Shown here: one piece after another, positions 3,632 to 58,590 of the stretch
Layout: each line of letters opens with the position of its first letter
How positions within the stretch are numbered: the stretch's first letter is position 1
Source of the DNA: a virus
Taxonomy: Duplodnaviria; Caudoviricetes
DNA: 60,236 nucleotides
Direction: 5' to 3' (one strand)
IMG/VR virus record: IMGVR_UViG_3300032224_001080
Location: 1 to 60,236 of that record
Notes under the pieces: model-generated
Told to the model about the DNA's origin: nothing
The model's database searches: none
Seen by the model: only the letters and a program-made list of their open reading frames with translations
Program-made: the position numbers and the translations under genes

Positions 3632-5398
3632 ATGGGAGCATTATTAGAATCAGGTATGGTTGGTAACATCGGTTTAAAACACCTTAGAGTTATCAAGGAA
3701 GATACCATCAAAAAATGGGACGAATTAGGCTTTTTAGAAGGTCTTGACGGTCACCAAAAAGATAACATCGCACAATTATATGAAAACCAAGCGTCTTATT
3801 TAATCAACGAAGCGGCAGTAGCTGATGCGTCTGGTTCATTCGAGACAGTAGTTTTCCCTATCATTCGTCGTGTGTTCTCTAAATTATTAGCTAACGACAT
3901 CGTGTCTGTACAAGCTATGAACTTACCAATTGGTAAATTATTCTTCTTTATTCCTAAAATTCAGGAAAGAGATGCAGACGGTCACTATTCACCATATGTT
4001 GGTGTTAATGGTCAAGCAACAGATAACCACAGTGCTTCTGCGGGCTATCCAGCGGGTAAAAGAAGTTTATACGATCGTTTCTACGAAGCTAGTGATGATT
4101 TAGATCAAGGTCTTTTTGATTATTCAAAAGGTTCTTTTTCTGTTGAATCATTGGCAGTTGCAGGTTTTGCAACTTTCTCTAACGGTGCAGTTACTGTTAG
4201 TGGTAGTGCAATTGCAACTGGTACAACAAAATCAAATATTATCTTAGCTTTAACTGGTTTCACATCAGCAGGTGCGGGTAAATTGAAAGGACCAGACGGT
4301 AATGAAATGGATTCTGAAGAATTCTTAGCTTCATTACAAGTGTTCTCTACAGATGCTAACTTATTAGCTTTCTTAGGTGCAACTACAAGTACTTCTTTAC
4401 CAATCAATATCGTTACTCAAAAGTACGGTAAAGGTATGGTTGAATATGGTGCTAAAACAACTAACGCAACACAAAATTATTATGATATTTGTGATGCTGA
4501 TAATGTTATTTATGTTCAAGTAGATTTACAAAAATACAGTGCAACTGCAGGTTTTGTTGATTACGTTGTTACAGGTTCAACATTGGATGATCAAGAATTC
4601 AACGCATCTTACCGTAAGTATGATACTTTGGAATTTGAAGAGCAAATCGGTGAAGTATCTTTTGATTTAGAGTCAGTAACAGTTTCTGTAACTGAAAGAA
4701 AATTAAGAGCTAGCTGGTCTCCAGAATTAGCACAAGATGTTAGTGCATTCCACAACATCGATGCTGAAGCTGAATTAACAGCTTTATTATCAGAGCAAAT
4801 CGCTGCTGAGGTTGACCGTGAAATCTTACGTGACTTACGTAAAGGTGCAGCATGGAAAGCTAAATGGGATTACAATGGATGGAAATACGGTGGTTCTGGA
4901 AACTCAACTTTACAAGGTTACACTCAAAAAGATTGGAACCAAACATTGGTGACTAAGATCAACCAAATTTCTGCTCAAATCCACAAAACTACGTTAAGAG
5001 GTGGTGCTAACTGGATCGTTGTTTCTTCAGAAGTTTCTGCAGTATTCGATGACTTAGAGTATTTCCACGTTTCTAACGCAGAACCAGAACAAGATCAATA
5101 TAACATGGGTATCGAGAAAATTGGTACAGTAGGTGGACGTTACCAAGTGTATCGTGATCCTTACTTCCCAGCAAACAAGATCTTGATTGGTCATAAAGGT
5201 AAGTCTTTGTTAGATGCAGGTTATGTATACGCACCATATGTGCCATTACAATTAACTCCTACAATGTACAATCCATTCAACATGACTCCAATCAAAGGTA
5301 TCATGACACGTTACGCAAAGAAAATGGTAAACAACCGTTACTTTGGTATCATCGATGTTCAAGGTATCCAAGTGTTTGGTTTAGATACATTAAGATAA
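3632..5398 (+). CDS. gp23: major capsid protein (T4 gp23-like)
   Basis: Motifs LYENQ, PIIRRVF..LLANDIVSVQAM..P.G, RKLRASWSPELAQD..AFHNIDAEAEL, YAPYVPL and GIMTRYA. Confidence 0.97.
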   Translation: MGALLESGMVGNIGLKHLRVIKEDTIKKWDELGFLEGLDGHQKDNIAQLYENQASYLINEAAVADASGSFETVVFPIIRRVFSKLLANDIVSVQAMNLPIGKLFFFIPKIQERDADGHYSPYVGVNGQATDNHSASAGYPAGKRSLYDRFYEASDDLDQGLFDYSKGSFSVESLAVAGFATFSNGAVTVSGSAIATGTTKSNIILALTGFTSAGAGKLKGPDGNEMDSEEFLASLQVFSTDANLLAFLGATTSTSLPINIVTQKYGKGMVEYGAKTTNATQNYYDICDADNVIYVQVDLQKYSATAGFVDYVVTGSTLDDQEFNASYRKYDTLEFEEQIGEVSFDLESVTVSVTERKLRASWSPELAQDVSAFHNIDAEAELTALLSEQIAAEVDREILRDLRKGAAWKAKWDYNGWKYGGSGNSTLQGYTQKDWNQTLVTKINQISAQIHKTTLRGGANWIVVSSEVSAVFDDLEYFHVSNAEPEQDQYNMGIEKIGTVGGRYQVYRDPYFPANKILIGHKGKSLLDAGYVYAPYVPLQLTPTMYNPFNMTPIKGIMTRYAKKMVNNRYFGIIDVQGIQVFGLDTLR

Positions 5399-5414
5399 TC
5401 TTAATAGGAATATC

Positions 5415-5445
5415 AAAAAAACCCTCGAGAAATCGGGGGTTTTTT
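5415..5445 (+). terminator. Rho-independent terminator after the MCP gene
   Basis: aaaccctcga-GAAA-tcgggggttt hairpin followed by a T run; flanking A and T tracts suggest it could act in both directions. Confidence 0.85.
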
Positions 5446-5448
5446 ATT

Positions 5449-5480
5449 TTTGGTATATTCTAAATAAAGTTGTATATTTG
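5449..5480 (+). promoter_or_regulatory. Bacteroidota sigma70-type promoter (-33 TTTG / -7 TAnnTTTG)
   Basis: TTTG at 5449-5452, a 20-nt spacer, TATATTTG at 5473-5480, then ATG at 5485. Confidence 0.65.
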
Positions 5481-5484
5481 TGAT

Positions 5485-5781
5485 ATGGAATACGAAAACC
5501 TACGATTAGACGTTTTAATCAAACTCATAGACGAGAGGGGAATTACGTGTAAAAATAAGAAAGATGTAATGATTGAACACCTCAAAATGGACGATGAGGG
5601 TAAATATATACGTGAAACTACCTACGAAAAGTGGGAAGGTCGTTTATTAGTGGGTATAGACCTCAAAAACGGACCTCATTTAATACAGATGGGTAAGTTA
5701 GTGGAAAAGAAAGAGGCGTTTTCTAAGGGTCTCTATGCGTCAGATAGAATATATTATATCGCTAGTCAAAAATTAATGTAA
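5485..5781 (+). CDS. hypothetical protein
   Basis: The ORF track gives 5470 (TTG). ATG 5485 (MEYENLRL...) is preferred because 5470-5480 overlaps the promoter. Confidence 0.65.
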   Translation: MEYENLRLDVLIKLIDERGITCKNKKDVMIEHLKMDDEGKYIRETTYEKWEGRLLVGIDLKNGPHLIQMGKLVEKKEAFSKGLYASDRIYYIASQKLM

Positions 5782-6534
5782 TTACCAAGTTCTACAAGCC
5801 CAATAACGAGGTTTCCAACGAGGACCAGGGTTATCACAATTCATACGTGCTCTGAATGATTTGCGTCTTGCAGGGTTATTTTTCTTAATAACCATTCTTT
5901 TACCTTTAGCGGATTTACCACCAAAACCAAAGTTTACTTTAACGACTTTACCTTTATCATTCTTAACATATACTTTAGATTTCTTTACATCCCCTTGCAT
6001 GATTTTACCCAATTGAACTTTACGTCCTTGGTATTCAGCTTCGTTTAAAAGACCTAAATCATATTCATATTTAGTATTTTGTATTGAACCAAATTCATCC
6101 TCGTATATTAATACAGGAGTTTGTTCGTTATATTCGAAAAGTCTTTCGAATTGTTCTTCACTTATTTGTATAATTGTTCTTTTTTCCATATTTTCATTAT
6201 AATGTGTCATTGTTGGTTTATTTCCTTTACCTAATTTTGGATGTTTTTTTTCTGCTCTTCTTTTTTGAGAAGTCATCGCTTTCTTTTCTTTTTTATCATA
6301 TGAAGAAGCGACTTTTGGTGTTTCTTTAGATACTTTTTTTGAGGGTCTACATTTTGGGTATGATTTTCCATCAGCATCTTTTCTACCACATGGAGGATGT
6401 TTACCATTTACCTTCTTACTAACATCTACCCATTTTTCTTTAAACCATCTTCTAAGATCTTCCTTTAAAACTTCACCTGATTTAATGGATTCTTCTATAT
6501 ATTCTTTATCTTCCTTTGAAACAATAATTTTCAT
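5782..6534 (-). CDS. basic modular hypothetical protein, probable head-associated protein
   Basis: Two Lys/Arg-rich modules (LRRWFKEKWVDV...PKCRP and AEYQGRKVQLGK...YWACRTW), each preceded by an LxE site; in the operon downstream of the TATTTATA box at 8263-8270. Confidence 0.7.
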   Translation of the reverse strand: MKIIVSKEDKEYIEESIKSGEVLKEDLRRWFKEKWVDVSKKVNGKHPPCGRKDADGKSYPKCRPSKKVSKETPKVASSYDKKEKKAMTSQKRRAEKKHPKLGKGNKPTMTHYNENMEKRTIIQISEEQFERLFEYNEQTPVLIYEDEFGSIQNTKYEYDLGLLNEAEYQGRKVQLGKIMQGDVKKSKVYVKNDKGKVVKVNFGFGGKSAKGKRMVIKKNNPARRKSFRARMNCDNPGPRWKPRYWACRTW

Positions 6535-6535
6535 A

Positions 6536-6814: not shown

Positions 6815-6815
6815 A

Positions 6816-8258: not shown

Positions 8259-8273
8259 AATATATAAATAGTT

Positions 8274-9668: not shown

Positions 9669-9691
9669 CTCTTTTATTAATAAATATCAAA

Positions 9692-11415: not shown

Positions 11416-11418
11416 ATC

Positions 11419-13771: not shown

Positions 13772-14473
13772 TTATTCTAAAAACCCACCTAAAATACCGT
13801 CATATAGTTTTTTATAACGTTTCAGGGAGACTCTAATCTCTTTTGTTGATAAGGAGGTCATTTCTCGTAAAGAGAGTAAAATGAGGTTCTTATTGAATTT
13901 GTTACCGTCACCTACTTGAAATATCTTATCAAAATTACTAAAGATTTCAAGTAGTGCGTAACCTAACTTTCTCTCATTATCAGATAGATTTTTCTCTTTT
14001 TCCACAAAATTTTCTAAATCAATTGTAAGTTTAGTAATAACCGAACTATAATCAATTACAAATTCATCAATTACATATGATAAGTCTTTACTATCTTCAA
14101 AATCTGAAGATATATCATCATACGATACTTGTCTATTTTGTTCTTTTGTATCTTTCTGTATTGCACCCATAAGGTAGTTTTTACAGATAGTTCCAAAGTA
14201 TGAATATGCTTTAGTATTTTTTGTGTGATCAAACTTGTTGATCTTAGTTATAAGGAAAGACATTGTATCGGTATGAATTTCTTCAAATTCCATATCTTTT
14301 CTATAAAGTTTATAACGTCGAATAATTGATTCGACCATTATAATTAGGGGTTCACGTAAATATTCATTGAATATCTTATTTTTTTCTGTTTCGTCAGTAC
14401 TTTCTAAGTAATTGACTACCGCCTTCTCTTGATCCTCCCCAAAATATATTTTTTGGGTTCTTGGTCTTGGCAT
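13772..14473 (-). CDS. gp55: RNA polymerase sigma factor for late transcription (T4 gp55-like)
   Basis: YF...QEKAVVNY, MVESIIRRY and KFDHTKNTKAYSYFGTICKNYL resemble the sigma region-2 motif of gp55 homologs (FD....AFSYFT.I..N). Confidence 0.8.
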   Translation of the reverse strand: MPRPRTQKIYFGEDQEKAVVNYLESTDETEKNKIFNEYLREPLIIMVESIIRRYKLYRKDMEFEEIHTDTMSFLITKINKFDHTKNTKAYSYFGTICKNYLMGAIQKDTKEQNRQVSYDDISSDFEDSKDLSYVIDEFVIDYSSVITKLTIDLENFVEKEKNLSDNERKLGYALLEIFSNFDKIFQVGDGNKFNKNLILLSLREMTSLSTKEIRVSLKRYKKLYDGILGGFLE

Positions 14474-15252
14474 TAAGCTATTTCATAATTTACATCTCGT
14501 TTATTTTTAAAGAAAAATTCTTTCTTTGCGGTCTCCAACCAAAATTTAGCTTCATCTTCACTAACCTTATTTGTTTCATCATTTTTATATAACCAAAATA
14601 ATGAATCCTCTCTAAAATTTAAGTGCTGATATCCTACTTTTGGTACAGTCATAATCTTAACATTGTTATGTGTTAATCTTAATAAAAACTCATATCCAAA
14701 TGTTAATTTAATATTTTCTTTTAATGAACCATTATCTTTAATAACTTGTGTTTTATAAAGTCCACCACTAATTTGATAATTTTGGAAATCTAATAATACT
14801 TCATTGTCTAATAAACCTTGTTTTTCTGTAAATCCATACGCCCATGTTGATTCGTTTGTGAAACTTACAAAGTTACCATCAGTATTTATATCTTTAACTA
14901 CCGGTAAAAATACATCAACGTCTGTATATGTTTTAACATACTCGTTTGTTGATTTTAACCAAATTGATTTATATTCATCATCAATTTCTAAAATACTAAA
15001 CCATTCAGTATCACATTTTTCAATACCCAAATTAACTTGAGAACAAAAATCTGTTTTAGTGTTATTAGTTACTATGTTTACTTCTAATACTTCTGAAATA
15101 TTTGTCAATTCAGATTTAACTGAAGGAGGACAAACAATCATTAATTTGACATCTTCGTGAAATTGTTCCACGGATTTAATTGCGTTATCTAACATTACAC
15201 GATAACTCTCTTCAATCCTATGTACAGGTAAAATTACTGTTATATTTTTCAT
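14473..15252 (-). CDS. glycosyltransferase, GT-A fold (GT2-like)
   Basis: ITVILPVH, AIKSV, VNLGIEKCDTEWFSILEIDD (DxD-like), YEFLLRL. Confidence 0.8.
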   Translation of the reverse strand: MKNITVILPVHRIEESYRVMLDNAIKSVEQFHEDVKLMIVCPPSVKSELTNISEVLEVNIVTNNTKTDFCSQVNLGIEKCDTEWFSILEIDDEYKSIWLKSTNEYVKTYTDVDVFLPVVKDINTDGNFVSFTNESTWAYGFTEKQGLLDNEVLLDFQNYQISGGLYKTQVIKDNGSLKENIKLTFGYEFLLRLTHNNVKIMTVPKVGYQHLNFREDSLFWLYKNDETNKVSEDEAKFWLETAKKEFFFKNKRDVNYEIA

Positions 15253-15253: not shown

Positions 15254-16309
15254 TTATTCTTGTTCTTTTTTTAGATTTTCTAATGCCTTTGTAAATGTCT
15301 CAACTCTTTTATTTGTAAATGAATTGAAAACTGATAAGATATTATTTTTAGTTATTTCAGTTTCATATGGTAATAAAGTATCTTTCATTTTTTGTTTAAC
15401 TTCGTCAGTTAATTCAACACCGTCTAACCATGCTAAAACAAATGTCCCTAAAATATCAACTAATTTATTTTCATCATAAGTCCACATACCATTTTCACTT
15501 AACCAATCTGGTTCGGTACTTGGTATTTTACCAATAATCGGAACACCTGATTTCATTGATTCTAATGGGAATGTGCCAAATGTTGATTCGTCATCCGCCC
15601 ATAATGAAACCATACAATCTTTTAGTCCTTCTGAGAATTCTTCATATGTCATTTGTACCATATCTTTAAAAGTGATCCAACGTAAATGTGGATATTTTAA
15701 ATAAAATTCAGAAATGAATTTTCTATGTTTAACTCTATCTCTACAACTAATTGCAATAAAAGGTTTTACAATACCTTCAGTAGGTTTAAAATTATCACCA
15801 ATAATTGGAGAGATTATATGGACTAATATTTCAGGAAAAATTTCTTGAATGTACTTTTTTGATTCTTCAGTTGTTACGATTGCTCGATCAAAACCATAAT
15901 CACTCCAACGACTACCAACTGGTAACGTTTCAAAAATATATTCTTTTTGTTGTATCAACATAACTTTAGTACATCTTACGTTTGCCAATTGTTGTAAAAC
16001 ATTTGAATAATATTCGGGAACAACAATAACGTCATCGATTGAAATATTAATCTTATCTTCTTTAATTGATACCAATTCTAAAACATCGTATTTTTCACCC
16101 AACCATTCTGGTTTGATGTATGATTTATCTTCCGTTAAAATTTTTGGATTAGATCCCGTTTCTTTTAACGTTAAAGCCATATCATAGATATGTTTAATTG
16201 CAGCTCTAGCATTATTTTTAGTGTCGTATGTTAAAAAATATATAACGTTTTCTTTTGTTTCTAACCTTCCTAAGGCTGATTCAAGTTTTTCTATGTTTTC
16301 TTTACTCAT
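15254..16309 (-). CDS. glycosyltransferase, GT-B fold (GT4-like)
   Basis: DVIVVPE near the N-terminus and STFGTFPLESMKSGVPIIG, matching the GT4-type E.FG...LEAM..G.P motif. Confidence 0.75.
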   Translation of the reverse strand: MSKENIEKLESALGRLETKENVIYFLTYDTKNNARAAIKHIYDMALTLKETGSNPKILTEDKSYIKPEWLGEKYDVLELVSIKEDKINISIDDVIVVPEYYSNVLQQLANVRCTKVMLIQQKEYIFETLPVGSRWSDYGFDRAIVTTEESKKYIQEIFPEILVHIISPIIGDNFKPTEGIVKPFIAISCRDRVKHRKFISEFYLKYPHLRWITFKDMVQMTYEEFSEGLKDCMVSLWADDESTFGTFPLESMKSGVPIIGKIPSTEPDWLSENGMWTYDENKLVDILGTFVLAWLDGVELTDEVKQKMKDTLLPYETEITKNNILSVFNSFTNKRVETFTKALENLKKEQE

Positions 16310-19092: not shown

Positions 19093-20313
19093 TTATTTTA
19101 TAATTGATTTAAAAAATTCTACTCTATCTTTACATACTTTTTTTAATGAATATGTATCTTTTACTGTTTCATATAAACGATTACCTAAGTCTTCAATCAT
19201 ATTAGGATTTTCAACTAAACGTTTCATATGTTTTGCCCAATCTTTATGGTTCTTTTTAGAACCTACTAATAATGCGTTTCCTTTATTATTAAACTTACCT
19301 TCATCAACCGCAGAAATTAAATCAATTGTAAATGGATCCACATCACTTGCAATGATTGCCTTTTTAAAGAAACCAGCTTCAATAACTTTAAGTTGTGATT
19401 TATTTGCGTTGAATACTGAATCAACTAAAGGTGCTAATGATACATCAAATGTATTATAGTTTGTTGCGTATGTATTAATATCTTTAGTCCATCTTCTTCT
19501 ATATGGTTCATCTATGTCGTTATAATCTCCTTGAGTAAAGGTTCCTAAATAATTTTTATATTCAGAACTTAATACTTTAAAATCATCTGTGAAAAATCCT
19601 TCATATTTGTACCATACTGTTTCTGTTGGTTGTATAGGTCTTTGTTGTTGTTTACCTTCTTGATCAATAACAGTTACACTACCTCTTGTATCAAACCCAC
19701 ATAAAACGAATTGTACTTTATCTTTAAATAAATTATATGTGGAAGAAATTCCATTTGACATTAACTCTAAATCGTGTAAATGTGATGACCCACCTAACCA
19801 ACCAAATCTAACTTTATCTGATTGAACAGGTTTATTTTGAAACTGTGGTTCATCTTCATTTACCGCATTTGGAAAAACAACAACATTACTAACTTTTAAT
19901 TTATCTTTAATCGTTTTTGCAAATATTGAAGTTGTGGTGCTAACATAATCAACGGCCTTTAACATGTCAATTTTCATTTCACCAACTTTATTCATTTTAA
20001 TTGCCATATACATTGGATGCCTTTGATCAACAAACCATAGATCATCAATATCCATTATAGTAATAATACCTTTGGATTTTAACCAATTAATTCTTTTAAT
20101 GTTATGTTCGTGATTTGTTTGATGGATAAAAGTATGAAAAACTACAATATCGTAGTTTAAAAAATAATCATCTCTATCTTCCGCATTATACGAAATATCT
20201 ACGTGAATATCCTCTGAATGTTTATCTGAAATGAATACAAATGGATCCATCATTCTAAACTTACCCACACCATGCTTATCCGATGGAATTGCTAAAATTC
20301 TAATTTTTGACAT
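19093..20313 (-). CDS. glycosyltransferase, GT-B fold
   Basis: GVGKFRM..P, MDIDDLW, FPNAV, RFGWLGGSSHLHDL, DVSLAPL....FNANKSQLKVIEAG, IIASDV. Confidence 0.85.
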   Translation of the reverse strand: MSKIRILAIPSDKHGVGKFRMMDPFVFISDKHSEDIHVDISYNAEDRDDYFLNYDIVVFHTFIHQTNHEHNIKRINWLKSKGIITIMDIDDLWFVDQRHPMYMAIKMNKVGEMKIDMLKAVDYVSTTTSIFAKTIKDKLKVSNVVVFPNAVNEDEPQFQNKPVQSDKVRFGWLGGSSHLHDLELMSNGISSTYNLFKDKVQFVLCGFDTRGSVTVIDQEGKQQQRPIQPTETVWYKYEGFFTDDFKVLSSEYKNYLGTFTQGDYNDIDEPYRRRWTKDINTYATNYNTFDVSLAPLVDSVFNANKSQLKVIEAGFFKKAIIASDVDPFTIDLISAVDEGKFNNKGNALLVGSKKNHKDWAKHMKRLVENPNMIEDLGNRLYETVKDTYSLKKVCKDRVEFFKSIIK

Positions 20314-23630: not shown

Positions 23631-23683
23631 CTAAATAGACTTTTATATAAATATCAAATGTTATGAAAGATATTTATATTATA

Positions 23684-25480: not shown

Positions 25481-25497
25481 AACGAAATATTTAATGT

Positions 25498-25725
25498 ATG
25501 TCTTGGCAGATAACAGGTAAATTTATTTTAGTCCCAAAAAACCAAACATTCCCGCCAACGGGAACACCTACGCCGACGCCATCAATCACCGATACACCTA
25601 CACCAACGCCAACAAATACCCCAACACCCTCACCGACTCCAACAAATGCACCATCTTATGATGTGTTATTATTGGAAGATGGATTTAACTTATTACAAGA
25701 AGATAACACTAAAATCATATTATAA
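25498..25725 (+). CDS. small Thr-Pro-rich protein
   Basis: 75 aa with a PT repeat and a C-terminal LLLEDG..LLQED motif often seen next to fibre genes. Confidence 0.6.
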   Translation: MSWQITGKFILVPKNQTFPPTGTPTPTPSITDTPTPTPTNTPTPSPTPTNAPSYDVLLLEDGFNLLQEDNTKIIL

Positions 25726-27548: not shown

Positions 27549-27592
27549 TAAAAAATTAAATAGACAGAAAATAAAAGTATTTATATAACATA

Positions 27593-30427: not shown

Positions 30428-30439
30428 TATTTATAACAT

Positions 30440-30796: not shown

Positions 30797-30886
30797 TACC
30801 CCCCTTTTTTCTTATACTTATTAATGTAAACAAGGCAAACTGTGGTTTTCCACAAGCTAATACGTCACATTAAAAAAATATAAAAC

Positions 30887-42206: not shown

Positions 42207-42695
42207 ATGGCCGATTTATTAATGAAAATGCCGACACCTTACGAACCAAAAAGGGTCAACCGATTTATCGTAAGATTTAACTCATCTTTGGGTATAAACG
42301 AATGGTACATTTCAGCTGCCGCTAGACCAAGTGCAAAAATCAATTCAGTTGCAATTCCTTTCCTGAACACTTCAACATATGTTGCAGGTAGATTTGAATG
42401 GAATGAAATTAAAGTGACTTTTAGAGATCCAATTGGACCTTCAGCTTCACAAGCACTTATGGAATGGTTCCGTTTACATGCTGAATCTGTTACAGGTCGT
42501 ATGGGATATGCCGCAGGTTACAAAAAAGATGTAGAATTGGAGATGTTAGATCCAACAGGAGTTGTGGTTGAAAAATGGTTATTGGAAAACTGTTTCTTAA
42601 CTGATTTAAACTTTGGTGATTTAGATTACAATAGAGATGAATTGGCAAATATCACATGTTCATTAAGAATGGATAGATGTATTTTGATATATTAA
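42207..42695 (+). CDS. gp19: tail tube protein (gp19-like)
   Basis: EPKRVNRF, YVAGRFEW..I.VTFRD, YKKDV.LEMLDP.G.VVEKW.L..CF; follows the sheath gene; TATTTATT box at 42160-42167. Confidence 0.9.
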   Translation: MADLLMKMPTPYEPKRVNRFIVRFNSSLGINEWYISAAARPSAKINSVAIPFLNTSTYVAGRFEWNEIKVTFRDPIGPSASQALMEWFRLHAESVTGRMGYAAGYKKDVELEMLDPTGVVVEKWLLENCFLTDLNFGDLDYNRDELANITCSLRMDRCILIY

Positions 42696-50397: not shown

Positions 50398-50724
50398 ATG
50401 AGTAGAGATTATTTTGATAGATATCAATTTTTTATAAATGATGGTAATTTTAGAATTGTACCGGGGATAGATATTGCAATTAAAGGAACAGACAAATATA
50501 TACAATATAAAAAAGGTAAGGATAGATTGGATAAAATGTCACAAGAATATTACGGTAGCCCAACTTTTGGTTGGTTAATATTAATGGCTAACCCAACCGC
50601 GGGAAGTATTGAATTTAATATACCTGATAATTTCTTTTTAAGAATACCATATCCCTTAATTAGCTCTTTACAAGATTATAAAAGAGGTGTAGAATTGTAT
50701 AATCTATATTATGGAGAAAAATAA
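50398..50724 (+). CDS. LysM-like baseplate wedge protein (gp53/gpX-like)
   Basis: DRLDKMSQEYYGSP..GWLILMANP...LRIP. Confidence 0.75.
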   Translation: MSRDYFDRYQFFINDGNFRIVPGIDIAIKGTDKYIQYKKGKDRLDKMSQEYYGSPTFGWLILMANPTAGSIEFNIPDNFFLRIPYPLISSLQDYKRGVELYNLYYGEK

Positions 50725-53700
50725 CATATCAAATACGGAAGACATATACGTTAAGGTCGATCAAAATAATTTAATTTATATTGACCCAAACTCTACGATT
50801 GATAGTGAGGGAAATGTGTCTGCAAGAAATATAAAAGCAGAAAAATTGGTAATGTATGTCAATCTAGAAGCCGATATCATTCCAAGATCCATATTATCTT
50901 CAATTAATGATACAAATACGTTAACAAGTTTAGCTAAAGGAACATTAAATTTTCTTAAAAATGGCGACGGACAAGATTACGATACAACGTGGACAGACTC
51001 CTTTTTTAATACAGAAGAAAAAAAAGATAGTGATAAAAACCCAACAGGTGAATTTTTTCAATCAGATAAGACCGGCCAATCATTTGGTATAAGTGATATA
51101 ACAATATCAATAAAAGGATTTAATTCAATACCAACAATTAACATTAATTTCATAGATATAAGAGGTAAAACTTTATTTGAGTCACCTGAAAATTCACCAT
51201 ATAAAGCATTTTTTCATATACCATGGCCTATATTTTACTTAACTGTTAAAGGGTATTATGGTAAGGCTATAAAATATAGATTACATTTAGTTAAGTTTAC
51301 AAGTAAATTTAATGAATCAAGCGGTAATTTTGAAGTAAACACTTCTTTTGTCGGTTCAACATATGCATATCTATCTGATATTCCGTTACAAGGAATTTTA
51401 AATGCCCCGTATCTTTTCCCAACGGAAGCTATTAAAACAAGTAAAACAAACACAATAACACTTAAAGAACTTGAAACAATTAAGAAATCTGCGAGAGGTT
51501 ATGATATGTTAAAAACGGTCTATAATGAATATAAATTAAAAGGACTTATACCTGATGATTTTCCTGTTAAAACATTAAGAGAGGTTTTAACAATTGCCGA
51601 GACCTTAGATACTTTATTAGAAAAACAAATATTCGATCAAGTTGTAGATATGAGATTATTTGCGGCAATGAAAGAATTCGGTGAACATATTGATGAATTT
51701 GAAAAATCTGTTACCGGTTGGGCAAAAACTCGTTTAGAAAATATTCCAATAACTACATTAGAAAAAGAATATGATCCGACTGACCCAACTTCAGTATTTC
51801 AATCTTATTATCTTAAAGGAGATGATAAAAAATCAGCAAAATGGGTTGTAGGACCAAATGAAGACGGTACTTTGGATCATCTTTTAAATTTGTACACAAC
51901 AAAAATAGATAAAAGTCAACTTTTTACTAAAAATTTAATTAAGAATCAACCAAGTATGATTAATAATACTGGTTCTTCTTTTACTGAAAGTTCCTTAGGT
52001 ATTAGTAAAGTTAGTAAAAAAATAGATTCCTATATTGAAGTAAACGATAAAGAAGATTATAAAATTGTAGTAAAGATTGAAAAGTTGGTAAATGATATTA
52101 GAGGTGTTAGAAGAGGTTTTGAAGAACAAAGAGATAAATTAGAAAAGGCGGTAGAAACAAAAATGAACGAAATTGTTCGTAATAAAAAGAACGGTTTTGG
52201 GTTTGAACCAACAATAAGAAGTATTTTTGCGGTTATATTAGCAAACGCTGAAGTTTTGGTACGTTTAATGAAAGACGTACATAAAAGAGCATTTGATCAG
52301 GGAGAAACAAGGAAAAAAATTGTTTCTGATTTTTCAAAAGAAAGTACGGGAGATTCAATTTATCCATGGCCTGAATTAAAGGCAACAGTAAAAAATAAAG
52401 AGAATACAATAATTTATCCTGGAGACCCTGATTTTCAAGTAAGATTAGGATCTGATAATGCAACTAGATGGCCTGAAGTAGCTTTCCTTGAATCATATAT
52501 CGGTATTGCAACAAATAAAGTAGATCCTTTGGCTGACAAAGAAGGAGGAACTAATAAAGTACCAGATCAAACTGAGAGTAATGTTGACAATAAAAAAATT
52601 AAAAAAATAAGTTCAGCAAATAGTGTTGTTAATATATTACCATATGTAAATAAATTACCGGATAATTTTGTTTATGAAATATATGAAAGAGCGTTAACGT
52701 ATACATTAATTGATTCATTTTCAACAGAAACCATACAAGAATTGGCAGACATTGAATATAATAATATTTTTGAATCTGTAAATAAAGAAAGAACTATAAA
52801 AAAATTATTAAAAGAAAATATTTTAAATGGTGGATCACTTTTAACTCAGTTAGAAAAATTATCACCTTTTGATAAATTTTCATATTACAAAGATAATTTA
52901 CCAACAACAGATTATTTAAAATCTTTTTACGAACAATCTTTTAATATTGAACAGTATAAAACTTCCAGTAATTTCAATGATAAAACATCATATCCAAAAT
53001 TAGAAAAAGAATTAATTAATCTTGTACCAAAAGAATATAGAACTAATATATATCCATTTTCTTCTGACACATATATAAGCTACATAAAAGGGAAAGTAAC
53101 TTTTGATGAGAGTTTATTAAGATTTCATGGTTTTTTAGAGGTTGATACAACACAAGGTTTAATATCAGGACAAGCAGATCCTAAATTTTGGGTTAAATCA
53201 GATTACGAAACAAATTTATTTGCGAGAAAACTTAATGTAAACACAACCGCCACGAACATTTTAAATACACCATATTTTCACAAACAATTGTATACCGATT
53301 TTAATACAACAAAAACATCTTATGGAAAATATGCGGGATCTGCATACCTTTTATTAAACTCAATGGGATTTACCGAATTAGATGAAATTAAAGAAGGGTT
53401 AACAATTGAAGATAAAATACCATATAGTGTTTTACCTTCTTCTTTATTTAGAGAAGTTAGTTCTAGTCAGTATATACCATATCATTTAATTTTAAAATGG
53501 GGGTCTATATATCATAGATATAAAAAACATATAAATGAAGGTATAGATATTTTAACGGGATTTACAACATCAAACACTAATACGACAACAACACCTATTG
53601 ATGGAAGTGATTTTTTTGATAATAATAATGGTTTAATGTATTTTACTGAACCAAGTTCAAATACGGGATATCCTGTTACATATAACACACAAGATGATAT

Positions 53701-56530
53701 TTTTACGGACCCACTTAATCCAGTTTCAGTTCAAGGTCAAATTAATTTAGGTATACATCCATATTATGATAATATATTCTATAATGTTATAAATGATCTT
53801 AGTTATTATAGTTTTTCATTAGCAGAAACAAGCGATTATAGTCAATCAATAACTGATGGTAAATTGTTTTTAAAAAATGATATTGTAACAAATACGGGAG
53901 GTACAAGATATTATTGGACACAATTTGTTGATAATTCTTTAATAACAAATAAAGATACATTTACATTATTACCATCCGCAGGAGGAAACGCAAGGGTAGG
54001 TAATATAGATTCAACAACACTTGGAGAATTGACAAGCTCAAATAATACCTACTCAAACGAAGAACAAAATCATTTTAGAATTATTTGGGATGATGAATCA
54101 TTAAATGATAGTTTTAGTGGAAGAACATTTGCATCTCCAAATGAATATAATTTAACAATCGGTGGATATTATAGTATTTTAGGTGATCGTAAAAAAGTCA
54201 TGGATCTAATTGCAACATTTAATCCATCAATATTAGATGAGTTTGAAAATTATTTTTTAAATTTTGCATCAGAAAGAGTTAATTTAAACGTATCAAACAA
54301 ACAATTTGAAACAACGGTTTATAACAATTTTCAAGATTTATTAAAAGATATGGTTACGGTGGATAAAATTGACGAATCTAATATATCTAATAAAATAATA
54401 AAAATTAAAACTAAACAGGCGGAAAAATTAAAAAATATAACAACATCAATTTTATCTAACTCTAATTTAATAAAAATAACAATCGGTAATCCAAAAGAAC
54501 TTGATCCACACGTTTTAACTGGTTTTATCGGTAAGGATAAAAATAATACTTTAACTTATGGTAAGTACGATAATAGTCCACTATTAACAACACCAAATAA
54601 AAAGTTATTAGATCTTTATTTAGGACCAGAACCAACAACTGATTGCTATAAAAATTTCTTTATTGACAATGATATTGAAATTACAGAAGATAATGTATTA
54701 ATGTTTAGACCAATAGTTTACATGTATGGAGGTTTTAAAAAACTTGGATTAAGTATAAGTTTTAAAGATTATCTTGATGAAAATATTTTTACTTTACCAT
54801 TGGCGGCAAATTCAAGATTTAATACTTTTATTGATCATCTATTACCCCAATTTACAAAATTAAAAGATGAACAAGACCAAACAAAAATTACTTTTTTTGA
54901 TGGTTATAATAATAAAGGTCTAAAAGTTGAACTTTATAATTTCTTTAAATCCATGAATGATAAATGGATCGCCGGTAATTCAATAGGACAAAGATCTTTA
55001 TTAGAGGAGTTTTTATTTTTAGATAAGGCAAATAAAGATATTGGTAACGATTACTATTTTGACATATCAAGATTAAAAATGTTAGGTGACCCTAAGAATT
55101 CAAAAATAAGTTTATTTAGTGCCATATCAACTTTTTTAAGTGGAACTGGTTTTGATTTAAGAGCACTACCGGCTTACGTTAATTTTTATGGTACCAATTT
55201 TTCAAATACACCTAAAATAATACCATCCAAAAAAATTGCACAGAATATATTTGGAACGTTTTTAGAAGTAGATACCCAAGAATCCTCACCCAAAATTGTT
55301 ATTCAATATGTGGGTAAGAATTCAACACGTCCCGATATGGGGAAACTTGGTAAATATAAATTTAACGATGATAGTTTTAATATTAGTAATACCAATAATA
55401 ATCCAGTTATGATTACTTTACCTAAAGTTTTTAAGACTGGAGATTTATCAAAAACTAATAAAGTGGTTGCATTTGAAGTTAGTTTTGGTGATCAAAACCA
55501 AAGTATTTTTAAAGGAGTTACTTTAGATCAAGCATCAATTAAAAATACAACTGAGTCTTTTTATGTATTAGAAAACTTAGCGAGATCTGAATCAGGTTCG
55601 GGTGCACATAATGTTGATATTGGGTTATATGATTATTATAGACAAGCGGCTTATACTTGTGATGTAACATGTATGGGTAATGTAATGATACAACCCACAA
55701 TGTATTTTTACCTTAAAAACATACCAATGTTTAAAGGTACATATTGGATTACTGAAGTAACACATTCAATAAAAAACGGATCAATTACAACATCATTTAA
55801 AGGTTCAAGGATGCCATATACCGCTCTTCCTGATTTAAAGGATTCCTTTATGTCAAGTTATAAAACATTATTTGATAAATTACAACAAAAAGCGGTTAAT
55901 AGAATTAAGGGTGCGGATAAGGTTACCGAAACATCAAAAACGGTTACAAACGCCGACGGAGGTCATTATACATTTGATACTACAGATAAAAAAGTGGACG
56001 GAGAAGTATTCGTAAGTGAAGCTTCAATTACAAAGGCAGGTATTCCATTTAACGGTTATTTAGATTCAAGGTATATTACAAAAGTTACACATCCATCTGG
56101 TACGTGGTTAAGAGCACAAGCGGTTAGAATGGGAGAAGATAAATATAAAGTACAAGATGATGCTAGAATGTCAATTGTTACTCAATCAAAAACTAAAGAA
56201 AATCCACCATTAACGTGGGAAATGGTTTATTATTTTACTAAAGATTATTATTTCTATTCAACTAATTTTAATTTCTCAACAGACAAATCTAACGTTGATG
56301 ATATGATTAAAATGAAATCAACTTTCTTTAACCCAAATAAATCTAATGTTAAACCAATAACAATTAATACCAAGTTTGAATTGGATAGTGATGTAACATC
56401 ACCAATTAAATTTTCAGGGGCGATTGATCAAATGAGGTCGGCTGAACCATATGGTATTGCGTTATCTGATAAGTTAATGACAGATTTAAGATTGGATGAT
56501 GGGGACATAGTTTACTTTAATGTAGGATAA
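50711..56530 (+). CDS. large baseplate hub protein (gp27/gpD-like termini)
   Basis: N-terminal FGISDITI....P.ININFIDIRG and C-terminal CDVTCMGNVMIQP.MYF.L..IPMFKG.YWITEVTHSI hub-like motifs; follows the LysM wedge gene. Confidence 0.6.
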   Translation: MEKNNISNTEDIYVKVDQNNLIYIDPNSTIDSEGNVSARNIKAEKLVMYVNLEADIIPRSILSSINDTNTLTSLAKGTLNFLKNGDGQDYDTTWTDSFFNTEEKKDSDKNPTGEFFQSDKTGQSFGISDITISIKGFNSIPTININFIDIRGKTLFESPENSPYKAFFHIPWPIFYLTVKGYYGKAIKYRLHLVKFTSKFNESSGNFEVNTSFVGSTYAYLSDIPLQGILNAPYLFPTEAIKTSKTNTITLKELETIKKSARGYDMLKTVYNEYKLKGLIPDDFPVKTLREVLTIAETLDTLLEKQIFDQVVDMRLFAAMKEFGEHIDEFEKSVTGWAKTRLENIPITTLEKEYDPTDPTSVFQSYYLKGDDKKSAKWVVGPNEDGTLDHLLNLYTTKIDKSQLFTKNLIKNQPSMINNTGSSFTESSLGISKVSKKIDSYIEVNDKEDYKIVVKIEKLVNDIRGVRRGFEEQRDKLEKAVETKMNEIVRNKKNGFGFEPTIRSIFAVILANAEVLVRLMKDVHKRAFDQGETRKKIVSDFSKESTGDSIYPWPELKATVKNKENTIIYPGDPDFQVRLGSDNATRWPEVAFLESYIGIATNKVDPLADKEGGTNKVPDQTESNVDNKKIKKISSANSVVNILPYVNKLPDNFVYEIYERALTYTLIDSFSTETIQELADIEYNNIFESVNKERTIKKLLKENILNGGSLLTQLEKLSPFDKFSYYKDNLPTTDYLKSFYEQSFNIEQYKTSSNFNDKTSYPKLEKELINLVPKEYRTNIYPFSSDTYISYIKGKVTFDESLLRFHGFLEVDTTQGLISGQADPKFWVKSDYETNLFARKLNVNTTATNILNTPYFHKQLYTDFNTTKTSYGKYAGSAYLLLNSMGFTELDEIKEGLTIEDKIPYSVLPSSLFREVSSSQYIPYHLILKWGSIYHRYKKHINEGIDILTGFTTSNTNTTTTPIDGSDFFDNNNGLMYFTEPSSNTGYPVTYNTQDDIFTDPLNPVSVQGQINLGIHPYYDNIFYNVINDLSYYSFSLAETSDYSQSITDGKLFLKNDIVTNTGGTRYYWTQFVDNSLITNKDTFTLLPSAGGNARVGNIDSTTLGELTSSNNTYSNEEQNHFRIIWDDESLNDSFSGRTFASPNEYNLTIGGYYSILGDRKKVMDLIATFNPSILDEFENYFLNFASERVNLNVSNKQFETTVYNNFQDLLKDMVTVDKIDESNISNKIIKIKTKQAEKLKNITTSILSNSNLIKITIGNPKELDPHVLTGFIGKDKNNTLTYGKYDNSPLLTTPNKKLLDLYLGPEPTTDCYKNFFIDNDIEITEDNVLMFRPIVYMYGGFKKLGLSISFKDYLDENIFTLPLAANSRFNTFIDHLLPQFTKLKDEQDQTKITFFDGYNNKGLKVELYNFFKSMNDKWIAGNSIGQRSLLEEFLFLDKANKDIGNDYYFDISRLKMLGDPKNSKISLFSAISTFLSGTGFDLRALPAYVNFYGTNFSNTPKIIPSKKIAQNIFGTFLEVDTQESSPKIVIQYVGKNSTRPDMGKLGKYKFNDDSFNISNTNNNPVMITLPKVFKTGDLSKTNKVVAFEVSFGDQNQSIFKGVTLDQASIKNTTESFYVLENLARSESGSGAHNVDIGLYDYYRQAAYTCDVTCMGNVMIQPTMYFYLKNIPMFKGTYWITEVTHSIKNGSITTSFKGSRMPYTALPDLKDSFMSSYKTLFDKLQQKAVNRIKGADKVTETSKTVTNADGGHYTFDTTDKKVDGEVFVSEASITKAGIPFNGYLDSRYITKVTHPSGTWLRAQAVRMGEDKYKVQDDARMSIVTQSKTKENPPLTWEMVYYFTKDYYFYSTNFNFSTDKSNVDDMIKMKSTFFNPNKSNVKPITINTKFELDSDVTSPIKFSGAIDQMRSAEPYGIALSDKLMTDLRLDDGDIVYFNVG

Positions 56531-56579
56531 TAAGAATATTAATAAAAGTTGGGATATTTATACATATAAAACAAATATT

Positions 56580-56783
56580 ATGGAAAATAATAGATTAAAT
56601 GATACCATGGATCAGTTTTTAAACTCTAAAAAGATTAAAAACGTATCAAATGATGGTATGGAAAGAGAAGAATGTGATTTAGTAACAGGCGAATGTTACA
56701 CAATCAGAGAAAAAGACGGAATCGTTGAAAGAATAAATAAAAAATACGTTACAAACGACGGTAGACAATTATTACAAGATTAA
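56580..56783 (+). CDS. hypothetical protein
   Basis: 67 aa with CDLVTGEC; TATTTATA box at 56555-56562. Confidence 0.65.
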   Translation: MENNRLNDTMDQFLNSKKIKNVSNDGMEREECDLVTGECYTIREKDGIVERINKKYVTNDGRQLLQD

Positions 56784-56786
56784 GCC

Positions 56787-57482
56787 ATGTTAGAGAAAAA
56801 ATTATTAGAAGAAGTAAAACGTTTTAATGCTATCAACAAGTATAGTAAGAAAATGATCATGGAGCAAGATGCTCCCCCACCTCCAGCGGAAGATCCGTTA
56901 GGTGATGTTCCTCCTCCACCTCCAGCAGGTGACGCAGGTGCACCGACAGATGTTCCTCCTCCACCTCCAGCAGGTGATATGGGTGGTAACATTCCAGCTC
57001 CACCTCCAGCAGGTGGTGATATGGGAGCACCCCCTATGGACGACTCAATGGGTGGTGATACAGAAGAAATTGATATTACAGATTTAGTTAACATGACTAA
57101 AAATATCAAAAATGATCTTGAGAATAACAAACAAGATAATTCTGCGGTTATTAATAAGATGGACGATGTATTCACTAAATTAAATGACTTAGAAAGTAAG
57201 TTGGCTCAAATGGACCAAGTTATGGTGAAGATTGATCAATTAGGTGCAACAGTTGAGGCTAACAAACCTAAAACTGAAGTTGAAAAATTGGAAATGAGAT
57301 CTTTAGATTCATACCCATTCAATGAAAAACCACAAGAGTTCTTTGCACACAAACAAGGTGAAATGAGGGCTAGTGGTAAGAATGAATATGTTTTAACAAA
57401 AGACGATGTTGAAAATTATACTCCAGATAAAGTAAGATCATCATTTAACCAAGATACTGAAAAAGATGAATATAGCTTCTAA
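56787..57482 (+). CDS. hypothetical protein with polyproline repeats and a coiled coil
   Basis: PPPPPAG repeats followed by heptad repeats; N-terminal LLEEVKRF tag. Confidence 0.7.
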   Translation: MLEKKLLEEVKRFNAINKYSKKMIMEQDAPPPPAEDPLGDVPPPPPAGDAGAPTDVPPPPPAGDMGGNIPAPPPAGGDMGAPPMDDSMGGDTEEIDITDLVNMTKNIKNDLENNKQDNSAVINKMDDVFTKLNDLESKLAQMDQVMVKIDQLGATVEANKPKTEVEKLEMRSLDSYPFNEKPQEFFAHKQGEMRASGKNEYVLTKDDVENYTPDKVRSSFNQDTEKDEYSF

Positions 57483-57837
57483 AATAAAGTTCTTAATGGA
57501 ACTTCAGGCTCAAGTTAAGATTAACCATTGGCAAACCAAAGGTTACGCAAGACATAATGCCTTTGATAAGTTATATGAAGGATTAGTTGATTTGACAGAT
57601 ACGTTTGCTGAGGCTGCGATGGGTAAGTATGGTAGATTTACATTAGAAAATGACGATAAATCATTAAATATTGTAAACCTATCCGAATTAGATTTAAAGG
57701 AAATGTTACAAACGTCTAAAGAGGCATTAATCCAATGGACAAGTGAGTTTGATTCAACAGATACGGATATAATGAATATACGTGATGAAATTTTGGGACT
57801 ATTAAATAAAATAACATATCTATTAACATTAGAGTAA
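57466..57837 (+). CDS. Dps/ferritin-like protein (DUF5856-like)
   Basis: HWQTKGYARH.AFD.LY..L....D.FAE...G.YGR and IRDEILG...K..YLL. Confidence 0.75.
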   Translation: MNIASKIKFLMELQAQVKINHWQTKGYARHNAFDKLYEGLVDLTDTFAEAAMGKYGRFTLENDDKSLNIVNLSELDLKEMLQTSKEALIQWTSEFDSTDTDIMNIRDEILGLLNKITYLLTLE

Positions 57838-57852
57838 AACAATTAGAATAAA

Positions 57853-58590
57853 ATGATATCAGGTTCAGTAGCAAAAACAAGTTCGGATACTACCACAGGT
57901 TCGTTATCTTATATAAATAACTTAGTGACAGGTGCAACATCTTCAGGTTCGTATCATATTACGGTATCAAACCAATATATGAATAACACAATGGCGACTC
58001 TATTAAGATCATATGGTTACAATGTAACCACTAGAAATGATTTTATGGGTACCAATAATGATTATGTTATTACTTGGGGAACCATTATAGACCCAACACC
58101 AACACCTACGCCAACACCTACACCCACACCAACACCTGAACCAACTAGTACTCCAACATCAACACCAGCACCAACTAGTACCCCTACACCAACACCTACA
58201 ATTACACCTACATCGACACCAGTACCAACAGCAACACCAACACCTACAGCGGCGGCAACTGCAACACCAACACCAACACCAACGGTAAGTTTATATCAAT
58301 CTTACAACTATTCAATTAGTGCAACTGATTTAGCTGCGGCAACGGGTAATTCAGGTGCTTTAGTAGGGTATAATAACAAAGTTGTTGTTGTAATAACAAA
58401 CGGTTACAATTGTGCTTTCCCAACAGAACGTAACTTTACTTATTCGTTTGGTGCTGCGGGATCGTCATACATTTCATGGTTAATTTCAAGAAAAACAGAT
58501 GTACCGGTAATTGGATATTATCAAAATAATACATTAGTAACTACAGGACTTATTTCAACACAAACAGCGAACCCATCGGTTCCTTGTTAA
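57853..58590 (+). CDS. Thr-Pro-linker virion-associated protein
   Basis: Two small domains joined by a (PT)n stretch of about 65 aa. Confidence 0.65.

Follow-up and report, generated by a model that had tools for sequence, protein, structure and literature searches.

The window analyzed in this study is the whole of the IMG/VR virus record IMGVR_UViG_3300032224_001080 (60,236 bp, 30% G+C; genome G000), which covers part of the genome of a very large T4-like myovirus, and the subject is a four-residue motif in the proteins that it encodes: Ser or Thr, then Gly, then any residue, then Thr, written [ST]GxT. The motif is found far more often than expected in the tail sheath and in a small set of other proteins. 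Across the window and its relatives this excess is confined to a few large tail, baseplate and fibre proteins, the outer insertion of the sheath, an insertion of the major capsid protein (MCP) and proteins of a family named here after its member at position 23663. The reading that we favour, tentatively and at slightly less than an even chance, is that [S/T]-G-x-T is a sequon for the modification of loops on the outside of the virion, most likely O-glycosylation by glycosyltransferases (GTs) encoded by the phages of this jumbo-myovirus lineage, as judged from patterns in the sequences.

Motifs were counted in 48 of the 63 window open reading frames (ORFs; at least 80 amino acids, aa), the 15 that were dropped lying inside or overlapping longer ORFs in another frame or on the other strand, and each protein was shuffled 1000 times globally, within 30-aa blocks and within 15-aa blocks. 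The tail sheath has 12 motifs (starting at aa 166, 184, 241, 276, 285, 296, 313, 582, 597, 607, 670 and 747) among its 19 [ST]G dipeptides, compared to 1.25 expected from its composition. The shuffles gave 1.27 (global), 1.60 (30-aa blocks) and 1.68 (15-aa blocks), and 12 was reached in 0 of 1000. The 23663 protein has 8 motifs among 12 [ST]G dipeptides, compared to 1.0 expected from composition and 0.75-1.02 in the shuffles (0.9 with local blocks), and 8 was likewise reached in 0 of 1000. MCP has 3 (TGTT at 196, TGFT at 208 and TGST at 314), all in its central variable insertion, compared to 0.43-0.58 expected (P ~0.006-0.016 in the shuffles). Together with the Thr/Ser/Gly-rich 27593 protein, these proteins hold 34 motifs compared to 8.2-8.7 expected (z 9.5 in the 15-aa block shuffles), the other 44 ORFs hold 21 compared to 14.5, and the total for the 48 ORFs is 55 compared to 23.2. 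An initial annotation of this DNA, which had proposed a phage-encoded glycan coat directed by this sequon, had counted motifs by hand, and its numbers held up well. The same twelve sheath tetrapeptides were found among 19 dipeptides, and the figures for the 27593 protein (11), MCP (3), family-B DNA polymerase (PolB; 2 of 10), the helicase (0), the tail tube (0) and the protein in the tape-measure position (1) were exact. It had started the 23663 protein at 23684, which is Met8 of the ORF; the 8 motifs stood and the total of about 11 [ST]G became 12. The enrichment that it suspected also persists once Ser, Thr and Gly content is corrected for, both by composition and by local blocks.

Some of the proteins that had been named as carriers of the motif fared less well, since little excess is left in the 27593 protein and the collagen-like fibre after the composition correction. 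The 11 motifs of the 27593 protein compare to 6.0 by composition and to 4.9-5.9 in the shuffles (P ~0.01-0.03), which is a modest signal, and the fibre at 25725-27548 has 50 [ST]G dipeptides but only 5 motifs compared to 4.5-6.7 expected, so it is not enriched. The large 50711 protein (3 motifs compared to 1.6-1.8) is not enriched either, and the 45660 protein (4 compared to 1.5-1.6) is marginal; family searches with these two were essentially empty. PolB, with SGET at aa 551 and TGNT at aa 666, compares to 0.41 expected, and its motifs are probably unrelated to the signal in virion proteins. Two motifs are also found in PolB of the complete relative G001, described below, and of most related loci, and one in some. 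The 23663 and 27593 proteins are presumed to belong to the virion. In the latter, a Cys-containing module of about 45 aa is duplicated (aa 453-500 and 534-575; TYTISGC...F.GD.F...FTG.T...CY.IINK), with motif instances in each copy and two sites within the module.

The window was compared with several genomes. G001 is an IMG/VR record of 335,630 bp that is rated 100% complete, in which 409 non-overlapping ORFs were called and of which 121-176 kb is collinear with the window. G003 is a 234 kb relative with orthologues at 45-68% identity, G008 is a complete 321-kb member of a sister clade, and G004/L144 is a distant relative. The Microcystis phage Mel-JY01, LR756508 and the Flavobacterium phage immuto served as outgroups. 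IMG/VR holds many relatives with sheaths 66-90% identical to that of the window, but cultured phages are all distant, the best sheath match among them being Mel-JY01 (36% identity over 63% of the query). The clade resembles the 'moraphages', which excerpts of PMC12619734 describe as aquatic jumbo phages of 200-307 kbp with predicted Flavobacteriia (Bacteroidota) hosts, with core genes that include four GT orthogroups and with no multisubunit RNA polymerase. It is plausible, though unconfirmed by sequence, that the two are the same.

The complete genome shows how narrowly the excess is distributed. The G001 proteome has 208 motifs compared to 118 expected, and 8 of the 409 ORFs hold 94 of them, compared to 12.9 by composition or 16.1 in 15-aa block shuffles (z 19.8). 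The remaining 401 ORFs have 114 compared to 105, so that the whole excess sits in eight proteins. These are the sheath, the orthologues of the 23663 and 50711 proteins (the latter with 10 motifs compared to 1.5) and five proteins encoded at 187.7-204 kb. Motifs are densest in two of the eight, one with 17 over 627 aa and the other with 18 over 692 aa. The block of five lies between a baseplate-wedge gene (phrog_219) and a primase gene, a position that suggests products located at the periphery of the baseplate or in fibres. These five proteins matched no Pfam or PHROG family (187748, 191049, 193178 and 201963, for example, gave essentially nothing). A hidden domain common to the motif-rich proteins was considered and rejected, because they have no BLAST similarity to each other and conservation around the motifs is weak: enrichment at the flanks does not exceed about 2x, other than for Thr at motif position 6 (3.3x). 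The family phrog_15511 is common to some of the rich proteins, but outside the motif clusters.

The motif is also exact at the level of single residues. In the G001 proteome, profiled after collagen-like and Pro-Thr linker repeats had been masked, the position before G-x-T is raised for Ser (3.2x) and Thr (2.2x) and for nothing else, position 2 for Gly alone (2.67x) and position 4 for Thr alone (2.67x, compared to 1.1x for Ser). The initial annotation had described fixed flanks around a free middle residue. The fixed Ser/Thr, Gly and Thr were seen here, but the middle is not fully free, as it disfavours Pro (2 compared to 7.3), Asp (5 compared to 12.8) and Glu (4 compared to 13.5) and favours Thr and Ser. 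A scan of all a-b-x-c triplets in G001 gave S-G-x-T as the strongest outside Pro-Thr linkers (112 compared to 34.7, z 13). In the top eight proteins of G001, Thr stands at +3 after 52% of the 182 [ST]G dipeptides, where Thr makes up 12% of residues, and the figure for the rest of the proteome is 8%. In the rich proteins [ST]GxT is raised 4.2-5.9x (z 9.5 in the window and 19.8 in G001), compared to 0.34-1.9x for fourteen control variants (reversed order, shifted spacing, Ser or Val/Ile for the last Thr, Asn, Asp or Ala for Gly, and Asp, Asn or a hydrophobic residue at position 1). Local composition as the cause is rejected by these permuted and conservative variants together with the 30-aa and 15-aa block shuffles.

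The Ser codons of the motif are drawn from both AGT (43%) and TCN, so the constraint acts on the protein. With these mixed codons and a nucleotide profile that holds no signal beyond the codons, a cause at the DNA level was rejected. Two known sequons were also rejected as the true signal, since neither N-x-S/T (0.99-1.05x) nor the Bacteroidota motif D[ST][AILVMT] (0.68-0.71x) is enriched in the motif-rich proteins. Consecutive motifs can be tightly spaced (8 of 116 gaps are of 4 residues or fewer) and can form overlapping tandems such as SGxTGxT.

The location of the motifs was examined in the sheath. Seven of its 12 motifs are in an insertion (~aa 115-330) that is absent from outgroup sheaths and that we take, by analogy with T4 gp18, to form the outer surface of the tail. 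The motifs at the core sites 670 and 747 are missing from the outgroup sheaths, which carry other residues there. An AlphaFold2 (AF2) model of the sheath had a mean predicted local distance difference test (pLDDT) score of 45.3 and was usable only for aa 103-385 (pLDDT 75-89). In this part, 24 of the 28 residues of the seven motifs are coil, compared to 47% for the region, so the motifs are in loops of the part of the sheath that was modelled. Of the seven, five are preceded by a strand and one by a helix, and the remaining one is in a long loop. The AF2 model of the 23663 protein (pLDDT 41.6) was unusable, and Foldseek searches against the PDB gave weak matches for the sheath, none of them at E <= 0.001. 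The expectation of the initial annotation that the motifs would be exposed rather than buried therefore agrees with the coil location of these seven sheath sites, as judged by secondary structure only, and no refutation was obtained.

The motif density of these proteins is kept among relatives while the individual sites are not. The sheaths of 76 full-length relatives have 4-14 motifs compared to 0.9-1.9 expected. When 55 distinct sheaths were aligned, motifs started in more than 50 columns, and only the site at aa 313 was near-invariant (51 of 55). The same orthologues are enriched in G003 as in G001, and enrichment in orthologues persists down to ~30-45% identity. Seven orthologue pairs of G001 and G003 (47-68% identity) have 84 and 57 motifs, which coincide in only 31 columns, and single substitutions often make or break a site (VGHT/TGHT and TGRT/TGRI, for example). 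The MCP motif TGFT 208 is kept in G001 and G003, whereas Mel-JY01 has a shorter and different stretch in this part of the protein. Density that is kept while sites turn over is the behaviour of selected sequons and is unlike that of an inherited fold signature.

The 23663 family was examined at 31 loci. The protein consists of a conserved N-terminal domain of ~370 aa, a Pro-Thr linker and a C-terminal domain that is swapped among relatives. Most homologues of the N-terminal part have 6-17 motifs compared to 0.4-2.5 (3 compared to 1.13 in L121), two homologues of the C-terminal part only are not enriched, and in the family alignment the motifs are concentrated in lineage-specific inserted segments. 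The region 23663-30800, from gene 23663 to PolB and in the same place in L116-L146, is a variable cassette that differs in gene number and content, with the domains after Pro-Thr linkers swapped between lineages. In G001 the 27593 orthologue is a protein of 289 aa, and only the first 289 aa of the window protein are conserved there; the 25725 fibre has no BLAST homologue (E <= 1e-5) among the G001 ORFs.

With distance from the window the signal fades. Over 150 sheath representatives (33-71% identity) the pooled ratio of observed to expected motifs falls from 4.7 in the nearest ten to 1.25 in the farthest ten. Sheaths of the sister clade (~1070 aa, 43-47% identity) have 2-11 motifs compared to 0.9-2.2, and in G008 the orthologue of G001 201963 (12 compared to 1.3), a 23663-like protein (18 compared to 4.8) and the sheath (5 compared to 1.0) are enriched. 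The G008 protein at 98771-100279 has 7 motifs compared to 0.62; its homologue in the window (8274-9668, 464 aa, 36% identity) has 0 compared to 0.46. With the homologue rich in one clade and empty in the other, the proteins that bear the motif are not the same set in the two clades. The outgroups are flat: Mel-JY01 has 8 motifs compared to 7.7, with 0 in its sheath and in its tail proteins of 1348 and 2255 aa, LR756508 has 5 compared to 3.8, and immuto has 40 compared to 22.6, with no protein beyond 4 compared to 1.0. These three phages reject the idea that the motif is a general trait of T4-like, fibre or Bacteroidota-phage proteins.

Table 1. Features of the window discussed in the text, with the family matches on which their names are based.
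Feature	Coordinates	Strand	Length	Matches and remarks
Tail sheath	38969..41884	+	971 aa	phrog_23 tail sheath, E 1.1e-61
23663 protein, family without assigned function	23663..25480	+	605 aa	phrog_24956 and phrog_15511 (both unknown function); no Pfam match
27593 protein, T/S/G-rich	27593..30427	+	944 aa	11 motifs
MCP	3632..5398	+	588 aa	phrog_138 major head protein, E 3.1e-66
Collagen-like tail fibre	25725..27548	+	607 aa	tail-fibre and collagen-like PHROGs
Large tail-module protein	50711..56530	+	1939 aa	no family match
Tail tube, inner protein (internal negative control)	42207..42695	+		phrog_4542, E 1.7e-27; 0 motifs
GT2-like glycosyltransferase	14473..15252	-	259 aa	predicted soluble; Pfam PF00535 (Glycos_transf_2)
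GT8-like (GT-A) glycosyltransferase	15254..16309	-	351 aa	predicted soluble; PDB 8XSG
GT-B (GT1/GT4-like) glycosyltransferase	19093..20313	-	406 aa	predicted soluble; phrog_7162
Putative sigma-70-like factor	13772..14473	-		adjoins the GT pair; sub-threshold matches only
Head maturation protease	1554-2237			
PolB	30887-33784			
Helicase	35118-36869			0 motifs
Baseplate-hub-like protein	42799-43548			
43693 protein				tape-measure position; 1 [ST]GxT
SSB and UvsX-like recombinase	right end of window			

The window encodes three candidate GTs (Table 1). All three had been called in the initial annotation, and the calls were confirmed in part, on weak family scores. The GT2-like protein passes the PF00535 cut-off narrowly (25.2 bits compared to 23.3, E 1.8e-5, residues 6-151) and has no PHROG, NCBIfam or PDB match. 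It is 88% identical in G001, 66% in G003 and 44% in G008, and has no match in Mel-JY01, LR756508 or immuto. For the GT8-like protein, a label of this analysis that comes from no database match, the sole significant solved relative is AmGGT, a 'putative glycosyltransferase' (E 3.3e-5, aa 87-278 only), and no Pfam, PHROG or NCBIfam match was found. According to the abstract of PMC12159676, Agt homologues of AmGGT add glucose to oligosaccharide chains of glycopeptides. The GT8-like protein is 92% identical in G001, 68% in G003, 36% in G004 and 38-40% in G008. It has 0 tblastn matches in 50,697 phage records and 1120 homologues among metagenome proteins, the best 120 of which are all at least 71% identical, so the lineage is common. 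The GT-B protein matches the glycosyltransferase family phrog_7162 (E 1.8e-38) and Pfam Glyco_trans_1_4 below the cut-off (20.2 bits compared to 27), and has no PDB relative. It is 85% identical in G001, 73% in G003, 50% in L144 and 52% in G008, is absent from the two outgroups tested (Mel-JY01 and LR756508), and has distant homologues (27-33%) in phi92-like, Campylobacter and Streptomyces phages.

Synteny of the GT genes holds in all relatives with contigs long enough to include them, among them the 23663-family loci with a sufficient flank; G002 (L026) and G007 (L128) are uninformative here, as both contigs stop short of the GT genes. All three GTs are present in G000, G001, G003 and G008. 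In G004/L144, the GT8-like and GT-B genes stand next to three ORFs with 21 motifs compared to 3.6, and the other 19 ORFs have 0. Homologues of the GT8-like and GT-B genes were therefore found in 5 of 5 motif-bearing lineages examined. The initial annotation had tied the motif to these genes, and in agreement with that the three outgroups, all of them without the GT2-like and GT8-like genes, lack strong enrichment, although the co-occurrence is phylogenetically nested and amounts to a single event.

The annotation had also named three GTs, and these genes are present, but the repertoire is much larger in G001, with about twelve GT-like ORFs, about nine of them beyond the three of the window, and six PF00535 matches. 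Seven GT-like ORFs are found in a glycan island, beyond the span that corresponds to the window, at 296975-306040 (L098:11975-19661 and L099:661-2040), among them GT2, Anp1-like, GT2_4/GT92-like and two GT1/GT4-like proteins. The island also encodes an NAD-dependent NDP-sugar epimerase/dehydratase, an O-methyltransferase, a DUF3431 protein and a Methyltransf_24 protein with a rhamnosyl-O-methyltransferase-like match. It has no BLAST homologue in G008. No transmembrane (TM)-like segment was found in the GTs and island enzymes of G001, and no Wzx/Wzy-like protein was evident.

The gene at 13772-14473 had been called a late sigma factor, and it does match sigma-70 families, but only below threshold (Sigma70_r2 at E 0.0014, below the cut-off; an NCBIfam SigK-like model at E 1.4e-5, far below the cut-off); it is 98% identical in G001. 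Separated by one gene (13377-13757) from this gene and the GT pair is a 652-aa protein of no known family (11419-13377) that is 90% identical in G001, has 2 motifs compared to 0.24 expected and has an orthologue in G001 with three TM-like segments. The window also has ~1.9 kb more DNA than G001 at 5782-8258. Here the ORF at 5782-6534 (DUF5872) encodes 250 aa compared to 131 in G001, that at 7578-8258 encodes 226 aa compared to 142, and the ORFs at 6536-6814 and 6816-7577 have no G001 counterpart. The extra DNA may be an inserted mobile gene.

The motif is exact to the residue, acts at the protein level and lies in loops; it belongs to a single lineage, in which unrelated outer-virion proteins have gained it repeatedly. 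Recognition by an enzyme or partner that the lineage makes accounts for this most simply. The strongest alternative to modification, which we consider unlikely but a real contender, is that the motif is an element of structure or assembly that carries nothing covalent, either a turn or cap that ends a strand or a docking motif for a chaperone or decoration protein, with the GTs serving otherwise. Several observations fit this. A hydrophobic residue or Thr stands at -1 in 67 of the 94 motifs of the G001 top eight, Ile and Tyr are raised at -3, and five of the seven modelled sheath motifs come directly after a strand. In alignments the Gly is often swapped for the turn formers Asp and Asn, and the last Thr for Ser, Ile or Val, and the sheath site at aa 313 is near-invariant. 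T-x-T is raised 1.6-1.7x over local expectation in the rich proteins of the window and G001, as expected of beta-rich proteins, and this excess together with the Thr at position 6 ([ST]GxTxT) suggests that the motif may extend into a Thr-alternating strand. However, common turn variants are flat in these proteins: [ST][ND]xT is at 0.72-0.97x, [DN]GxT at 0.73-1.25x, [ST]Gx[VI] at 0.69-0.88x and [ST]GxS at 0.99-1.33x. The homologous core positions of outgroup sheaths and the outgroup tail proteins of the same families are without motifs, over half of the sites differ from one orthologue to the other although density is kept, sites are also found after a helix and inside long loops, and overlapping tandems such as those noted above would be odd for a turn.

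A second alternative, which we regard as improbable, keeps the sequon and changes its chemistry or its enzyme. The modification could be another one (phosphorylation, for example) or be made by a host enzyme or other GTs, with the GTs of the window acting on DNA, small molecules or precursors of the host envelope. The evidence on the motif does not name the chemistry, and sequence cannot by itself separate another modification from glycosylation. About nine further GT-like ORFs in G001 could supply the enzyme, and since G008 bears the motif and has no BLAST homologue of the glycan island, at least the island GT set is dispensable. DNA glycosylation and serotype conversion are also the best known roles of phage GTs (PMC12619734 and bioRxiv 10.1101/2023.12.21.572611, in the portions cited here). 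Set against this, the three GTs of the window track the motif in four genomes, and the GT8-like and GT-B genes do so in G004. A role in DNA modification is disfavoured by the lack of precursor enzymes, as neither PF00303 (thymidylate-synthase/dCMP-hydroxymethylase) nor PF00145 (C5 DNA methylase) was found in G001 or G003, where the controls for these searches worked. A role in envelope precursors is disfavoured by GTs that all look soluble and by the lack of an evident flippase or polymerase, and a host enzyme by the flat Bacteroidota motif, whose system is periplasmic.

An artefact of composition, of repeats or of post-hoc choice is a hardly credible source of the enrichment: the motif was chosen after the proteins had been read, Ser/Thr/Gly-rich and collagen-like segments do inflate counts (the 25725 fibre and a G008 ORF at 272532), and the 27593 and MCP signals are modest, but 15-aa block shuffles leave z at 9.5-19.8, an unbiased triplet scan puts S-G-x-T on top outside Pro-Thr linkers and the result is replicated in independent genomes and in 76, 31 and ~150 related loci, so that with flat outgroups an artefact is excluded for practical purposes.

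Several points weigh against a glycosylation sequon. Most motifs follow a beta-strand, with the residue preferences given above for the structural alternative. Exposure was judged from secondary structure alone, as both full-length AF2 models are of low confidence. The signal is weaker in the sister clade, where the whole G008 proteome has 144 motifs compared to 133.8, and the 16 'motifs' of the G008 ORF at 272532 are collagen-like repeats of the type GATGNTGA, an artefact. The family scores of the three GTs are weak, and none of them resembles a known protein O-glycosyltransferase. GT-B homologues are present in phi92-like and Campylobacter phages, where the function of the GT is unknown. The co-occurrence of the GTs with the motif is nested and amounts to one gain, so coincidence is possible. 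Two other GT2 genes are present in Mel-JY01, where the motif is not enriched, so GTs are not sufficient. PF12851 (Tet/JBP) gave no match in a search with a silent control, which leaves some likelihood of DNA glycosylation by a different route. No cultured member of the clade was found among the phage records searched.

O-glycosylation is nevertheless the leading candidate, because of the many conserved soluble GTs and sugar-tailoring enzymes that these phages encode. The sequon-directed coat proposed in the initial annotation is supported in part: enrichment, exactness, turnover, loop location and GT synteny all speak for it, while the link to the GTs is one evolutionary event. Under this proposal, the modified proteins would be the outer domains of the sheath, baseplate and fibre proteins, 23663-type proteins and, weakly, the capsid insertion, and they would be O-glycosylated in the host cytoplasm by soluble GTs of the phage. 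The GT-B enzyme would attach the first sugar to the Ser or Thr at position 1, with Gly at +1 giving room at the backbone and Thr at +3 determining specificity, and the GT8-like and GT2-like enzymes would then lengthen the glycan. Enzymes with genes elsewhere (additional GTs, a sugar epimerase/dehydratase and sugar methyltransferases) may extend and tailor it in some lineages. We infer the existence of the modification, its glycan nature, the acceptor residue and the roles of the enzymes, the last two being conjecture. In its fullest form, which is possible but somewhat doubtful, the proposal is that abundant uncultured freshwater jumbo myoviruses, probably growing on Bacteroidota, have an undescribed O-sequon, [S/T]-G-x(not P/D/E)-T, three conserved soluble GTs that read it in the cytoplasm and a dense glycan coat on sheath, baseplate, fibres and capsid, with sites that would be continually gained and lost at a density that is kept.

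No [ST]GxT sequon and no glycosylated phage sheath or fibre was described in the literature searched, which did not extend to supplementary virion proteomics. To our knowledge phages have no known O-linked sequon of a dispersed kind, and we know of few bacterial cytoplasmic O-glycosyltransferases with a simple linear sequon, which are sought for glycoengineering. If the proposal is right, the motif would be a compact and portable acceptor tag that comes with soluble enzymes, and it would explain why so many 'orphan' GTs are found in jumbo phages. It would mean that phage tails, beyond heads, can be sugar-coated, and it would bear on adsorption, on the evasion of defences based on receptor masking or proteases and on the stability of particles in lakes. 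Even without a glycan, a tetrapeptide this exact, arising again and again on unrelated tail proteins of one lineage, is a signal of selection that calls for an explanation. As it can be scored from sequence alone, it can be screened for across thousands of huge-phage genomes.

Known systems for glycosylating proteins share some features with the one proposed here and differ in others. The general O-glycosylation of Bacteroidota is directed by D-(S/T)-(A/I/L/V/M/T) and takes place in the periplasm on exported proteins. It is alike in its short O-sequon and in the phylum predicted for the host, but the motif-rich proteins of this study have slightly fewer copies of its motif than expected. In serine-rich-repeat adhesins, GtfA/B (GT-B) start on Ser/Thr and GT8 and GT2 enzymes (GT-A) extend the glycan, all in the cytoplasm, and the heptosyltransferases of autotransporters recognise a short strand-loop-strand motif. 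The trio of GT-B, GT8-like and GT2-like enzymes and the position of the motif at the ends of strands are similar in the phages. However, those acceptors are long Ser-rich repeats or 19-aa beta-helix repeats, whereas here the acceptor would be a dispersed tetrapeptide, and no sequence relationship was detected. The Actinobacillus NGT, whose sequon is N-x-S/T, works with Agt, an alpha-1,6-glucosyltransferase. This pair offers a parallel in its soluble cytoplasmic GTs, its short sequon and the later extension of the sugar, and the GT8-like protein matches AmGGT. It is unlike the proposed phage system in that N-x-S/T is not enriched here, and the similarity to AmGGT is limited to aa 87-278.

Viruses that glycosylate their virions with enzymes of their own are established among chloroviruses and a few mycobacteriophages. 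In the latter, the precedent named in the initial annotation, phage-encoded GTs reportedly decorate virion proteins (Freeman et al. 2023, Cell Host Microbe). The glycans of mycobacteriophages are at the C-termini of capsid and tail-tube subunits (as cited in excerpts of PMC12619734). Phage-encoded GTs with virion proteins as substrates, here candidate ones, are common to both systems. In contrast to C-terminal glycans and Actinobacteria hosts, the lineage described here has a dispersed tetrapeptide in loops. The closest precedent is the glycosylation of chlorovirus Vp54 at atypical N-T-x-T sites. In PBCV-1, virus-encoded GTs that act in the cytoplasm modify Vp54 at the sequons NTGT, NTET, NTAT and NIPG, with methylated and unusual sugars (excerpts of PMC9614988). 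The modification of Vp54 is known by crystallography and mass spectrometry; the present system is read from genomes. The Vp54 glycans are N-linked to Asn in a virus of a eukaryotic alga and mainly on the capsid, whereas here the candidate acceptor is Ser/Thr-Gly on many tail proteins of a tailed phage. What the two share is a large DNA virus with its own GTs and a short atypical sequon, here a candidate one, that ends in x-T. If the proposal is right, the coat of these phages would correspond to the glycan shields that animal viruses carry and to the glycosylated capsids of chloroviruses.

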